Positions 10,275 through 12,519 of a stretch of 32,000 nt of DNA are shown here, in pieces. The position numbers and the translations under genes were made by a program. A model generated the notes under the pieces. That model did no database searches and had not been told where the DNA came from. It was given only the letters and a program-made list of their open reading frames with translations. Source of the stretch: Alkanindiges sp. WGS2144 (GTDB lineage: Bacteria > Pseudomonadota > Gammaproteobacteria > Pseudomonadales > Moraxellaceae); the NCBI RefSeq assembly GCF_043950625.1, contig NZ_CP171007.1, one strand, 5' to 3'. Numbering within the stretch: position 1 is the first letter of the stretch; each line of letters opens with the position of its first letter.

Positions 10275-10763
10275 ATGAAGCACAATATGTTGGGCAGCAT
10301 CCATCAGGTACTGTCGCATCTGGGTATTGATTTTAATAAAGCGCATCGCCCACTACAGCTGACATTTGGCGACCCTCACCTTAACGAGCATTTCTACCTG
10401 CAATTTGTCTGCGGGCACACTGCAATCAATGAAGGCCTTGAGCTAAAGCTGCTTTGCCTGTCAACCAGTGCGTATCTACCATTAAAAGATTTTATTGGGC
10501 AAGTTGCTACTATTGAGCAGACGACCGATCAGGGTTTACTGCATCAATTGACCGGTATGATCACCCAGGCCGCCAGTGGCCATCATGATGGTGGATTTGC
10601 GCTATACCAGTTAACACTCCAGGATAGTTTTAGTAGCCTGCTGGCAAAACGGCGCAATAGCCGGGTGTTCATGCAAAAATCGGTGCTGGAGATTACGCAG
10701 ATTTTATCTCAGGAATGGCAACAACAACCTACCTGCAACTGCACCTTAACAATATTGATTTGA
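10275..10763 (+). pseudogene. vgrG: vgrG N-terminal fragment (T6SS spike protein, gp27-like N-terminus), truncated after about 150 residues.
   Basis: The 162-aa ORF has ...PLQLTFGDPHLNEHFYLQFVCGHTAINEGLELKLLCLS...LPLKDFIGQVATIEQTTDQG...YQLTLQDSFSSLLAKRRNSRVFMQKSVLEITQILSQEW. This follows the conserved VgrG N-terminal pattern as I remember it. The ORF then runs into a stop, where a full-length VgrG would continue for 500-900 more residues. From 10715 the next frame encodes an unrelated lipase. Confidence 0.65.
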
Positions 10764-12136
10764 ATAAACCTGCCCCACCGCCACTGGTACAAGGTTATGG
10801 GGATGCGATGGATAGACGAGCCGATCGGATGATCCATGCACGTCAAATGGATCAGTATAATAAAGCCCATGCGTTTACTGACGAATGGCTCAGCATTTTA
10901 AATAAAGCGGAGCAAGCTACGTGGCATGCTCAGTGTACCCTGCAAAGTATTGATAAGGATTCGATTCAACATTTGGCAAAATTTAATTTACCCGTATATG
11001 CCATGGGTTATAACTGGCTTCAGTCCAATGAAGACTCAGCTCAAACTATTTATAAAAAACTAGCCGCCATTAAAGCCGAATATGGGCAACGCTTTCACAA
11101 GTTTATTATTATCTCACATTCCATGGGAGGCTTGGTTACCCGTAGGCTAGCACAATTGTGTGGTGAAGATATTGCTGGCGTCGTGCATGGTGTAATGCCT
11201 GCCGATGGTGCAGCTGCCGCTTATCGGCGGATAGTCTCTGGCTCTTATGAGGGTGGTGGACTGGTGCCATGGGTGACGTCTTTTGTGCTAGGTAAAAATA
11301 CTGAACACGTCACGGCGGTATTGGCTAACTCGCCAGGTGGCTTGGAGCTATTGCCCAATGCTGAATATAATCAGCGCAAGCCCTGGTTAACCCTGCAAGG
11401 CAAAAATGAAAGAAATGAAATGGTCAAAGTTGAGCTACCCACTGCAAATACCAAAGGCGAGATCGATCCTTATGAGCAAATCTATAAAGCAGATAAAGTA
11501 TGGTGGGAAATGGTAAGGGAGGAACTGATTGACCCCGCCAATATGTTTAAGCCAACGACACCTAAAGAAACCCCTAAAGATATTTATAAAGAAAAAATTG
11601 AAGACGTTAAAAAATTTCATTCTCGTATTGCCAAAAAATACCATCCCTGCACTTATGTCAATTATGGGCATGACCCTCAATTTAGCAGTTTTGGCACCTT
11701 GACCTGGACGTTAGACCGCAATCTTAAGGGTTTAGATGCAAAGCAACTCAAATCCCTGCCTAAAGCTTCTGATAAAGAAATGGCAACCTATCGTGCAAAA
11801 ATAGTGCAGGAACAAATGAAAAGAATCCAGAGCGGTAGTGGAACCAATGTAAATAGCCGAGATATGGCTCTGGAAAATAATGGAGTTAGGTATATTTCAT
11901 TATCTAGCGGTAACTTAGCAAATTTTTGTATTTCTGATCAAAATGCACCAGGCGATGGGACGGTACCCTTTCAATCTGGGCGAGCGCCTTATAACAACTC
12001 AGGTGTTAAGCAAATCTTTCAAATGATGGGTTTTGACCATCAGGGCAGTTATAATGACCCACATGTTAAACGTTCAGTATTGCATTCCATAGTAAGCATT
12101 ATAAAAGAAAATAACATTCAGCCAAAGTTCAGGTGA
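10715..12136 (+). CDS. GxSxG alpha/beta-hydrolase, lipase/phospholipase-like. It is a candidate T6SS Tle-type effector. The start is uncertain (ATG 10715 or ATG 10808).
   Basis: The nucleophile elbow is IIISHSMGGLVTRR (Ser codon 11120-11122). A lipase-type Asp lies in APGDGTVPFQSG (11954-11956) and a His in GFDHQGSY (12038-12040). The gene sits between two vgrG remnants. ATG 10715 has AGGA immediately adjacent, which is too close for a good SD. ATG 10808 has GGGGA 4 nt upstream. Confidence 0.75.
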   Translation: MATTTYLQLHLNNIDLNKPAPPPLVQGYGDAMDRRADRMIHARQMDQYNKAHAFTDEWLSILNKAEQATWHAQCTLQSIDKDSIQHLAKFNLPVYAMGYNWLQSNEDSAQTIYKKLAAIKAEYGQRFHKFIIISHSMGGLVTRRLAQLCGEDIAGVVHGVMPADGAAAAYRRIVSGSYEGGGLVPWVTSFVLGKNTEHVTAVLANSPGGLELLPNAEYNQRKPWLTLQGKNERNEMVKVELPTANTKGEIDPYEQIYKADKVWWEMVREELIDPANMFKPTTPKETPKDIYKEKIEDVKKFHSRIAKKYHPCTYVNYGHDPQFSSFGTLTWTLDRNLKGLDAKQLKSLPKASDKEMATYRAKIVQEQMKRIQSGSGTNVNSRDMALENNGVRYISLSSGNLANFCISDQNAPGDGTVPFQSGRAPYNNSGVKQIFQMMGFDHQGSYNDPHVKRSVLHSIVSIIKENNIQPKFR

Positions 12137-12221
12137 TTAAAAATATGAACAGTGGGTTCTGTTAAAGAACAGATTGTTCAGCCGGTTAAATCTGGACAAT
12201 CTCACCTATTCTCGCAGTAGC

Positions 12222-12519
12222 GGAGAAGGTAAATCTCGGGGGAAGGTTTTGAACTACAGACTGATCAGTATGGTGCATTGCTGGCGGGACAACGGTGCTC
12301 GCAACAGATGCTCAGGCACAGGCATAAGGTCATCATCTGGATGTAGCATCCGCCAAAGCCTTGAGTGAAGTGGCTAAAGATCAGCAGACTGACCCATTAA
12401 GTATGCTGGATCGTCTGCAACAGGTCATTCAAGCCCTGGCGCAAAATAACCCTGAGCAGGTAGTACACTTTAAATCAGCCTTATTGCTGCTCAGTTCATC
12501 TAACGGTATAAGCAGTTAG
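12222..12519 (+). pseudogene. vgrG: vgrG C-terminal remnant, degraded by at least one frameshift (near 12287-12292) and an in-frame TAA (12325-12327). The 5' boundary is uncertain.
   Basis: Manual translation gives SGEGFELQTDQYGALLAGQ (frame of 12236). After a shift it gives TTVLATDAQAQA*GHHLDVASAKALSEVAKDQQTDPLSMLDRLQQVIQALAQNNPEQVVHFKSALLLLSSSNGISS* (stop at 12517-12519). The xELxTDxxGAxxAGxG...xxxxLDxxxAxxxL pattern is what I recall from the C-terminal third of VgrG proteins. A strong terminator follows directly. Confidence 0.55.

Follow-up and report, generated by a model that had tools for sequence, protein, structure and literature searches.

Setting of the locus

The window, a stretch of 32 kb from Alkanindiges sp. 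WGS2144, carries between ilvD and marR a strain-specific segment of 3.5 kb in which fragments of T6SS genes are arranged as follows.

9873..13380, no strand: strain-specific segment between ilvD and marR, delimited by a break in synteny, with the whole remnant inside
10275..10727, + strand: 5' remnant of vgrG, codons 1-151, without internal disruption (Phage_GPD, TIGR03361, tblastn)
10715..12136, + strand: 5'-truncated lipase gene of the tle4 family, 473 codons (homologue alignment, fold match; esterase/lipase in the NCBI annotation)
10722..10729, + strand: predicted deletion junction 1, at which vgrG passes at codon ~151/152 into tle at codon ~124/125 (homology endpoints, codon layout)
12137..12179, + strand: zone of junction 2, in which the native 3' flank of tle continues for 5 nt (to 12141) and the rest is of uncertain origin
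12180..12516, + strand: relic of internal vgrG sequence, corresponding to residues ~587-712 in a VgrG of ~957 aa (T6SS_Vgr match, alignment to P0251)
12541..12574, no strand: bidirectional intrinsic terminator, a perfect 14-bp stem with an A-run on one side and a T-run on the other (inverted repeat I9, 100% complementary)
12596..13123, - strand: gene of a predicted 175-aa lipoprotein with lipobox LAAC (ORF within the strain-specific segment)

Nucleotide synteny with the loci L022, L023 and L025 ends at 9855-9872 on the left; on the right it restarts at 13379-13381 in L022 and L023, and not before 14818 in L024 and L025. The GC content of the segment is ~38-47%, compared to ~50% in its flanks. 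The relatives retrieved by ilvD are A. illinoisensis, A. hydrocarboniclasticus and one MAG, with a best ilvD identity of only 92%, and none of them has T6SS genes at the ilvD-marR site. In three relatives the interval is occupied instead by an unrelated gene of 431-439 aa, which was not found in the window by tblastn, has no relationship to the window lipase by sequence comparison, and matches no Pfam family. Alignment to close relatives, which an earlier sequence-only reading of this DNA had suggested, thus locates the break in synteny, but no closer relative with an intact ancestral cassette at this site was found among those retrieved by ilvD, and the ancestral state is therefore reconstructed from Acinetobacter loci. 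The 32-kb window contains no T6SS core genes (tssA-M, hcp, clpV); homologues of the T6SS-1 core have been reported for the genus Alkanindiges generally (PMC6838775).

A vgrG gene cut after codon 151

The ORF at 10275-10763 has 162 codons and is vgrG sequence to position 10727, after which 11 foreign codons lead to a stop at 10761-10763. Its product matches Pfam Phage_GPD (PF05954) at profile positions 3-104 of 305 with 73.1 bits (E = 3e-20, cutoff 30.1) and TIGR03361 with 45.4 bits (E = 4e-12), which does not reach the cutoff of 186.35, and is 44-50% identical to residues 1-144 of full-length VgrGs of 910-957 aa. An exhaustive search with this stub retrieved, at E <= 1e-3, 352 VgrG-like representatives, whose matches end at query residues 150-153; the closest is P0247, a fragment of 341 aa with 59% identity. 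A word-index protein search retrieved short fragments only. Homology extends to QEWQQQ, where P0247 reads on as ...EWQKKSAIF, and the tblastn alignments to L003, P0250, P0251 and P0252 all stop at 10727. Among VgrGs, including those linked to tle in Acinetobacter, the best score is that of A. baylyi L004 (142 bits, 50% identity). By these profile and homology matches 10275-10727 is a true VgrG N-terminus, in agreement with the sequence-only reading, which had described a VgrG N-terminus that runs into a stop.

The VgrGs of relatives contain all four domains, Phage_GPD, the gp5 OB fold Phage_base_V, T6SS_Vgr and the DUF2345 beta-helix, within 910-957 aa. This architecture is absent in one frame from the window, of which the VgrG content is residues 1-151 and ~587-712 only, 1.4 kb apart and in different frames. 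The 2,245-bp span from the first piece to the end of the second had been equated with the length of one vgrG gene, and is too short for that, as related vgrG genes measure 2.73-2.87 kb.

A tle4-family lipase gene that lacks its 5' end

The ORF at 10715-12136 is uninterrupted and encodes the motifs SHSMGG, GDGTVP and FDHQGSYND, a Ser/Asp/His set with the counterparts HSMGG, GDETVP and YEHQESYND in PDB 4R1D and with catalytic columns that are invariant in the family (S258, D530 and H558 in the numbering of P0002). P0002, the nearest full-length homologue, is 75% identical over the whole window ORF and matches 4R1D chain A (Tle4, PA1510) at E = 4.5e-56; the best Foldseek match of its AF2 model (pLDDT 88) is also 4R1D_A (E = 2.6e-36, TMt 0.76). 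A Pfam search of the full-length homologues reported the nucleophile-elbow region only, and the 4R1D alignment and the AF2 model were used instead. By its similarity to PA1510 in sequence and fold, the window ORF is a member of the Tle4 family. A scan of the genome collection with the lipase retrieved loci from Acinetobacter and Betaproteobacteria and none from Alkanindiges.

The sequence-only reading was correct that one uninterrupted lipase ORF with Ser/Asp/His motifs lies between the vgrG pieces, but the gene is not intact: to judge from alignment with its homologues (~78, of 555-594 aa), which begins at their residue ~124-127, with window residue 2 paired to residue 124 of P0002, it has lost ~124 conserved N-terminal codons. 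The missing residues hold 13 of the 54 invariant columns of the family and include the first core beta-strand and the loop PxIFxPGIMGxN; the motifs DTIPIIFxPGIMGSNI and WGTVHWDSYG of this region are at least 90% conserved in homologues. The region aligns with residues 41-159 of Tle4 in 4R1D, and the immunity protein is bound by a peptide of Tle4/TplE that comprises residues 82-108 (PMC5611513). In the AF2 model of P0002, the confidently predicted strand at residues 35-38 and the helices at 61-82 belong to the part that is absent from the window copy, and the cut point lands inside the helix at 119-133.

Genuine tle sequence starts at about 10727, and nucleotide homology to the L001 lipase gene starts at 10726. 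The ATG at 10715 lies further upstream, within the translated vgrG' ORF, and spans the vgrG codons 147/148 (GAA-TGG) in another frame; an AGGA touches it with zero spacing, and a properly spaced ribosome-binding site is lacking. A search of the + strand upstream of the ORF found no promoter-like site. A programmed -1 frameshift that would fuse VgrG' to the lipase was considered and rejected, as the overlap at 10715-10763 contains no slippery heptamer.

The tle ORF departs from the family at 5 of 145 conserved columns, its nearest intact relative at 4 of them. Continued selection would also be expected to leave a clean ORF of 473 codons that keeps all three catalytic motifs and is not enriched in substitutions at conserved sites. 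It is nonetheless quite unlikely that the truncated ORF is live, expressed from the vgrG promoter via the ATG at 10715 or an internal Met as a stand-alone hydrolase independent of T6SS delivery. The uninterrupted codons and retained motifs, the lack of excess changes in conserved columns and the NCBI annotation as a protein, not a pseudogene, would fit such a gene, but the loss of 13 invariant residues together with the PxIFxPGIMGxN strand and loop, a start predicted to fall in mid-helix, the zero spacing between AGGA and an ATG that lies inside another translated ORF, and the lack of an upstream promoter-like site on the + strand all argue against it. So does the length distribution of the homologues, among which there is no conserved short class of ~470 aa; the shorter database entries are on short contigs or are marked partial.

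The absent immunity gene and junction 1

In Acinetobacter the order of genes is vgrG, tli4 (immunity), tle4, so the arrangement that the sequence-only reading had taken as usual, with the effector before the immunity gene, is not that of the relatives. Complete vgrG-tli4-tle4 cassettes are present in five loci (L003-L006 and L010); four more (L001/L002, L007 and L009) have a vgrG that is truncated or runs off the contig, and only tli4-tle4 is seen in L008 and L021. With the Tli4 of L003 as the tblastn query, tli4 adjoins tle in Acinetobacter loci L001-L010 and L021, and weak Tli4-like matches lie 3' of tle in two Betaproteobacteria loci. There is no space for tli4 in the window, as the vgrG remnant and tle homology lie 8 nt apart, and tle and the vgrG relic 43 nt apart; an adjacent cognate immunity gene of the Tli4 type is, judged from this spacing, absent at the locus.

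Given the order vgrG-tli4-tle4 in relatives, junction 1 would be the product of one deletion that extended from vgrG into tle and removed tli4. If the breakpoints of the window are placed on L003 or L004, the deletion amounts to ~3.7 kb, and a single event of this size explains both junction 1 and the missing immunity gene. There is a possible microhomology, AACC, at junction 1. A repeat search found no IS elements and no flanking direct repeats at the junctions, and nothing beyond these possible 4 nt.

An internal vgrG relic downstream of tle

Blastn homology to L001 and L003 stops at 12134-12141, and vgrG homology is detectable from 12180. The frame-corrected downstream piece matches Pfam T6SS_Vgr (PF13296) at profile positions 51-101 of 108 with 34.9 bits (E = 1.7e-8, cutoff 22.4), and is 42% identical over 124 columns to residues 589-712 of P0251. 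Profile searches of the 162-aa ORF and of this piece therefore both return VgrG-family matches, and the piece is derived from VgrG as previously supposed, but it is internal and is not the end of the protein: ~245 C-terminal residues (DUF2345 and beyond) are missing. As the T6SS_Vgr match appears only after the frame is corrected and a TAA is read through, the relic is a pseudogene. Its lesions are two frameshifts, in the G5 run at 12238-12242 and at ~12289/12290, the TAA at 12325-12327 and the loss of 11 codons near 12354. The one frameshift and one TAA that had been noticed in 12236-12519 are present there, and the homology, which starts at or before 12180, adds the G5-run frameshift and the 11-codon deletion. 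The G5-run frameshift alone could be an assembly error.

The strong terminator that had been placed right after this piece is also present, as a hairpin with a T-run 22 nt past the stop of the relic (71-nt fold, -25.4 kcal/mol, z = -4.17), and is shared with the convergent lipoprotein gene. The lipoprotein belongs to no family in Pfam, NCBIfam or PADLOC and has no Tli4 domain; considered as a candidate immunity protein, it was rejected as a demonstrated part of the system, having no assignment to Tli4 or another family and no similarity in 27 loci.

The relic has three disabling changes and a 33-nt deletion in ~340 nt, compared to zero in the N-terminal stub (453 nt) and zero in the tle ORF (1.42 kb). 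Two frameshifts, a TAA and an 11-codon deletion suggest that the relic is probably an older pseudogene, and the scarcity of decay in the stub and the tle ORF suggests that the first deletion was comparatively recent. The same contrast would be accounted for if the deletion had made a new expressed gene, because 473 clean codons would then lie beside a lesion-riddled vgrG relic; such a gene would encode a shortened Tle4-like hydrolase that starts at the ATG at 10715 or an internal Met, lacks the T6SS-loading and immunity-binding regions and is kept for a T6SS-independent function, which we regard as very improbable.

Both vgrG pieces have the same three full-length representatives as their top matches (P0250, P0251 and P0252, among those retrieved with the N-terminal stub), as if they came from one parent gene, with identities of ~45% for the stub and 40-44% for the relic. 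The pieces are also on the same strand and in the correct order. These observations would suit a single vgrG that was interrupted when its codons ~152-586 gave way to a tle fragment, from codon ~125 to the end, by illegitimate recombination or template switching, the 3' third of vgrG being lost later. This history is unlikely in view of the unequal decay, since at the lesion rate of the relic (3-4 per ~340 nt) zero lesions in 453 nt has a probability of ~0.005-0.02 by a Poisson estimate, and it requires an insertion that is illegitimate at both ends, and one more deletion besides. The affinities of the two pieces also differ: the stub scores best against the tle-linked VgrG of A. baylyi L004, but the relic scores best against P0251-type VgrGs, with 98 bits versus 52-57 bits for tle-linked VgrGs, and VgrGs of the P0250/P0251 type have no tli4-tle4 3' of them, other downstream genes being seen on their short contigs.

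It is extremely unlikely that the junctions and frameshifts are artefacts of misassembly or of homopolymer errors in long reads and that the real genome has an intact cassette. The 2.38-Mb source contig suggests that long reads were used, and one of the frameshifts does sit in the G5 run, but the other large ORFs of the window (2324, 565, 895 and 1063 aa) are all intact; homopolymer errors do not account for the TAA substitution, the 11-codon deletion or the three truncation boundaries; and 3.7 kb missing inside one contig, where nothing is repeated, would be an atypical collapse.

Origin and state of the locus

The identities of the pieces, the degree to which each is truncated, the order of genes in relatives and the break in synteny are directly established, and the region is, with high probability, the non-functional remnant that several deletions have left of a T6SS vgrG island, acquired by horizontal transfer and located at a variable ilvD-marR spot. 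The ancestor would have had a canonical vgrG-tli4-tle4 cassette directly 5' of an older vgrG relic that was already dead. One deletion, which began at vgrG codon ~152, ended at tle codon ~124 and measured ~3.7 kb, would then have removed five-sixths of vgrG, the entire tli4 and the 5' end of tle, leaving a chance out-of-frame ATG in vgrG codons 147/148 as the putative start of the remaining 470 tle codons. Thus, gene callers report a clean "lipase" of 473 aa. The downstream vgrG fragment, internal and cut at both ends, would have been a pseudogene for longer. We infer both this order of events and the number of parent vgrG genes.

Two of the explanations offered by the sequence-only reading, deletions that collapsed an array and a decaying orphan module, fit these data. 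Replacement of a cassette by recombination through vgrG ends does not, as the pieces are not the 3'-terminal ~60 codons of the L003 type and the downstream piece is internal and far more decayed. Nor does an intact effector occupy the place of the missing VgrG core, for the lipase itself is cut at codon ~124-125. Delivery of the lipase is probably lost, because a conserved core strand and loop, the cognate immunity gene and a complete adjoining spike gene are absent and the ORF depends on a borrowed out-of-frame start without a properly spaced ribosome-binding site; we infer that the locus as a whole has lost its function.

Significance and comparison with known systems

A survey of A. baumannii reports truncated effectors, and truncated vgrG genes with rearrangement, as frequent (PMC6833914); it rated 25 of 272 vgrG genes as truncated, and likewise 39 effector genes. 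Truncation of both kinds of gene is thus already documented as common, and the locus represents ordinary gene decay and not a new arrangement; what had been called an unusual, datable rearrangement scar is indeed a scar with vgrG-derived sequence on both flanks, but an ordinary one. It raises no new question on the mechanism of T6SS. Its main value is a correction of annotation, for the ORFs of 473 aa and 162 aa, which a gene caller and the NCBI annotation present as an ordinary esterase/lipase and as a VgrG-family protein, are both fragments that are due a pseudogene flag, and counting both would inflate inventories of T6SS effectors and spikes. It also adds a further case of vgrG islands that decay by deletion after acquisition, and indicates that Tle4 cassettes of the Acinetobacter kind, with the immunity gene 5' of the effector, have reached Alkanindiges.

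The family of the window lipase has in common with Tle4/TplE (PA1510) of the P. aeruginosa H2-T6SS (4R1D), the effector paired with Tli4/TplEi, its fold, the GxSxG nucleophile motif and the Asp and His motifs, and relatives of the window lipase likewise adjoin vgrG and immunity genes with Tli4_N/Tli4_C domains. Unlike Tle4, the window copy is without the first ~124 residues, among them the Tli4-binding cap subdomain and a strand and loop of the core; unlike the Tle4/Tli4 locus, the window is without tli4 and without a complete vgrG, and in Acinetobacter the immunity gene is 5' of the effector.

The closest known arrangements are the vgrG-tli4-tle4 islands of Acinetobacter (A. baylyi, A. colistiniresistens, the A. 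baumannii complex and others), with effectors of the same family at 54-67% identity to that of the window, a similar VgrG N-terminus (at most 50% identity, in A. baylyi), and the same strand and gene order. Those islands are complete, with vgrG of 910-912 aa, tli of 352 aa and tle of 571-589 aa, whereas the window has vgrG codons 1-151, tle codons ~125 to the end, and a relic of a vgrG middle region that looks different. Relic arrays are another point of comparison: a model of sequential effector displacement, which leaves such arrays, has been put forward for V. cholerae (PMC5361080), the tli-tle pairs of L003 are parted by vgrG fragments, and L007 has a vgrG stub of 218 codons. The window differs from displacement arrays in that it retains no orphan immunity gene, and from the array of L003, in which cassettes carry along the ~60 codons of the 3' end of vgrG, in that its relic is an internal piece.

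The vgrG-tle4 remnant and its truncated phospholipase gene

The locus between ilvD and marR is real, and most of what a sequence-only reading had observed in it is accurate; its pieces are listed below.

Features of the remnant locus
10275-10763, 162-codon ORF that includes the vgrG N-terminal stub (10275-10727)
10715-12136, tle ORF of 473 codons
12180-12516, vgrG-derived relic
12541-12574, terminator: perfect 14-bp inverted repeat, A-run on one side, T-run on the other
12596-13123 (-), strain-specific predicted lipoprotein of 175 aa

The lipase ORF, previously called intact, has no internal stops and has lost about 124 conserved codons at its 5' end. 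Nearly all close homologues (among 2,392 lipase homologues) have 571-589 aa; residue 2 of the window lipase aligns to residue 124 of the nearest full-length homologue, P0002 (75% identity), and residue 5 to residue 127 of another, P0015, and nucleotide homology to the P0002 gene starts at 10726. P0002 has a single solved-structure match, Tle4 as seen bound to Tli4 (PDB 4R1D, chain A; E = 4.5e-56). In fold comparison, the AlphaFold2 model of P0002 (mean pLDDT 88.1, pTM 0.88) is closest to 4R1D_A (E = 2.6e-36), with LPLA2 and LCAT next. These sequence and fold matches identify the lipase gene as a Tle4-family T6SS phospholipase gene.

The absent residues are more than an expendable leader. Their counterpart in Tle4 is residues 41-159 (4R1D), and across 78 homologues conservation reaches 90% or more for two motifs in them, DTIPIIFxPGIMGSNI and WGTVHWDSYG. 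When 38 sequences down to 35% identity are aligned, 54 columns are invariant, and 13 of these fall in the absent part. The P0002 model places a confident beta-strand at residues 35-38 (block pLDDT 97) and a helix at 119-133, within which the truncation point falls. In alpha/beta hydrolases, a strand and small-residue loop N-terminal to the nucleophile elbow constitute the core strand carrying the oxyanion-hole loop, and the absent strand and loop would be this element. The counterpart of TplE/Tle4 residues 82-108, the immunity-protein-binding peptide (PMC5611513), is also missing. The tle ORF departs from consensus at five of 145 highly conserved columns, its nearest intact relative at four. 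The locus is probably a non-functional vgrG-tle4 remnant.

The upstream vgrG stub and its junction with tle4

The 162-aa ORF is annotated by NCBI as a VgrG/Pvc8-family protein, and profile searches bear out its reading as a VgrG N-terminus: it matches Pfam Phage_GPD over profile positions 3-104 of 305 (73.1 bits, E = 3e-20) as well as TIGR03361 and TIGR01646, the latter two far under their full-length cutoffs, as expected because it is a fragment. Alignment of the stub to residues 1-144 of full-length VgrGs (910-957 aa) reveals no frame disruptions, and every such alignment ends at 10727. Searched exhaustively with HMMER, 1.84 billion representatives yielded 352 matches at E <= 1e-3, ending at query residues 150-153; the final 11 codons ahead of the stop are not VgrG.

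At the junction, the vgrG frame reads GAA TGG CAA CAA CAA CCT and the tle frame reads ATG GCA ACA ACA ACC TAC CTG. Since P0247, the closest VgrG relative (a 341-aa fragment), runs on as ...EWQKKSAIF and the closest tle has GGT GCA ATT TTA ACC TAT CTA at this position, comparison places the join within 10722-10729, possibly at the shared AACC. The ATG of the lipase ORF (10715) consists of vgrG codons E147/W148 read out of frame; efficient initiation there would be unlikely because AGGA adjoins it with zero spacer and it sits within the translated vgrG' ORF.

The downstream vgrG relic

The two stubs had been taken for the N- and C-terminus of one vgrG, which they are not. Three-frame translation and tblastn searches with full-length VgrGs place the second piece at residues 587-712 of the 957-aa representative P0251 (42% identity, 124 columns); frame-corrected, it covers positions 51-101 of 108 of Pfam T6SS_Vgr. 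It is internal rather than C-terminal, because homologues run about 245 residues beyond it (DUF2345 beta-helix plus C-terminal extension). Native tle 3' flank homology stops 5 nt past the tle stop, and the relic starts at some point within 12142-12180. The 71-nt terminator region folds at -25.4 kcal/mol (z = -4.17); the terminator is absent from the list of a simple consensus scanner and is shared with the lipoprotein gene that converges on it.

Reading of the relic
12180-12238, first stretch, SRLNLDNLTYSRSSGEGKSRG
12238-12242, frameshift in G5 run, then GEGFELQTDQYGALLAG
about 12289/12290, second frameshift, then TTVLATDAQAQA
12325-12327, TAA stop right after TTVLATDAQAQA
after the TAA, GHHLDVASA, then an 11-codon gap versus homologues
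up to stop 12517-12519, last stretch, KALSEVAKDQQTDPL...FKSALLLLSSSNGISS

Derivation of both pieces from a single vgrG gene is possible, and among the representatives retrieved with the N-terminal stub both score best to the same three full-length VgrGs (P0250-P0252). With Acinetobacter tle-linked VgrGs added, the stub scores best to these (A. baylyi, 142 bits, 50% identity) and the relic still to P0251-type VgrGs (98 bits, versus 52-57 bits for tle-linked VgrGs); tli4-tle4 was not found after P0250 and P0251. This comparison is weak evidence because the VgrG mid-region is variable. Unequal decay is a stronger argument, and it speaks against a single gene: the relic has three disabling lesions and a 33-nt deletion in about 340 nt, whereas neither occurs in the 453 nt of the stub or the 1.42 kb of the tle ORF. 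If all pieces had been inactive equally long, the probability of zero lesions in the stub alone would be approximately 0.005-0.02 by our own Poisson estimate. Because of this inequality, the favoured model is one in which the cassette would have been whole until a deletion struck it recently, with an older, dead vgrG relic already lying downstream.

Chromosomal setting

Alkanindiges sp. WGS2144 has an NCBI protein, encoded on a 2.38-Mb contig, with exactly the sequence of the 473-aa ORF (100% identity). The flanks of the locus are housekeeping genes (large repeat adhesin, BamE/OmpA protein, ilvD, MarR regulator, alpha/beta hydrolase, DUF4259, PEP carboxylase, RND efflux pump, dnaJ and dapB), and the window contains no T6SS core genes. 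The site was reached in A. illinoisensis, A. hydrocarboniclasticus and one MAG via ilvD homologues (90-92% identity). Nucleotide synteny with these relatives ends on the left at 9855-9872. For A. illinoisensis and the MAG it restarts at 13379-13381; A. hydrocarboniclasticus has no marR-hydrolase pair, and there synteny does not return until 14818. Between these ends the relatives have a conserved 431-439-aa gene of no Pfam family, unrelated to the lipase and completely absent from the window; the MAG and A. illinoisensis copies are 74% identical, and in A. hydrocarboniclasticus a flavodoxin/FMN-reductase-like gene separates it from ilvD.

Copies of the 431-439-aa gene, at the position matching window 9873-13380
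L022 (MAG), 11745-13040
L023 (A. illinoisensis), 12044-13363
L025 (A. hydrocarboniclasticus), 13205-14524

The 3.5-kb segment (GC approximately 38-47%, versus about 50% in the flanks) is strain-specific, because synteny breaks there and relatives carry an unrelated gene instead. None of these relatives has an intact ancestral cassette at the site.

The lipoprotein gene faces the relic and shares its terminator; the predicted product has a signal peptide plus the lipobox LAAC, matches no Pfam, NCBIfam or PADLOC family and resembles none of the fetched loci. The ilvD terminator (9889-9925) and the post-relic terminator (12541-12577), which bracket most of the island, are 70-76% similar as direct/inverted repeats, probably merely as two hairpins of the same A-run/T-run type. 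The PEP carboxylase ORF (15260-17947, -) has 895 aa versus 931-945 aa in three relatives, which may stem from a genuine difference at the 5' end or from the start codon that a mechanical ORF lister chose. Upstream of the BamE/OmpA gene, a 2324-aa adhesin-like ORF (81-7055, +) contains four tandem units, which Tandem Repeats Finder missed because their period exceeds 500 nt and which also yield a ladder of spurious antisense ORFs; relatives have CLIPPER/SdrD_B surface proteins of 2008-2013 aa at this position, so the gene of WGS2144 is longer than theirs.

Adhesin repeats (+; spacing exactly 1149 nt or 383 aa, about 96% identical)
528-827
1677-1976
2826-3125
3975-4274

Intact loci and debris in Acinetobacter

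Genomic-context look-ups and a genome-collection scan yielded loci in which one strand carries, in this order, vgrG (910-912 aa), tli4 (about 352 aa, Tli4_N plus Tli4_C domains) and tle4 (571-589 aa), with immunity ahead of the effector. The order is complete in A. colistiniresistens (L003), A. baylyi (L004), an Acinetobacter MAG (L005), Acinetobacter sp. Ac_5812 (L006) and A. stercoris (L010); a contig end cuts off vgrG in L001/L002 and L009, and tli4-tle4 alone is seen in L008 and L021 (A. rudis). With the window breakpoints moved onto L003 or L004, one deletion of about 3.7 kb would take vgrG codons 152-end, the whole of tli4 and tle codons 1-124.

In A. colistiniresistens (CP102099, L003:2979-13643), three tli-tle units form a tandem array split by vgrG 3' fragments of about 60 codons: vgrG, tli4-tle4, vgrG 3' fragment (codons 850-910), tli4-tle4, vgrG 3' fragment, then split tli4 and tle fragments. 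The array illustrates clearly how cassettes stack through the 3' part of vgrG; its final unit is in decay. Independently, vgrG of A. nematophilus (L007:5683-6327) is cut down to its first 218 or so codons, followed by about 2 kb of unassigned sequence and a tli4 fragment, and then by an intact tli4-tle4 pair. Downstream of the closest intact tle, a 76-aa fragment of DUF4123, a T6SS adaptor (L001:4047-4277), is debris of another effector cassette in a tle island.

Of the explanations offered earlier, that of a decaying orphan module fits: this is a vgrG-tle4 island of an ordinary kind, orphaned and in decay, and islands with debris occur likewise in L003 and L007 of Acinetobacter. T6SS-1 core homologues have been reported for Alkanindiges at the genus level (PMC6838775). 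Truncated vgrG and effector genes are already documented as common: a survey of A. baumannii counted 272 vgrG genes and judged 25 of them, along with 39 effector genes, to be truncated or non-functional, some clearly rearranged (PMC6833914).
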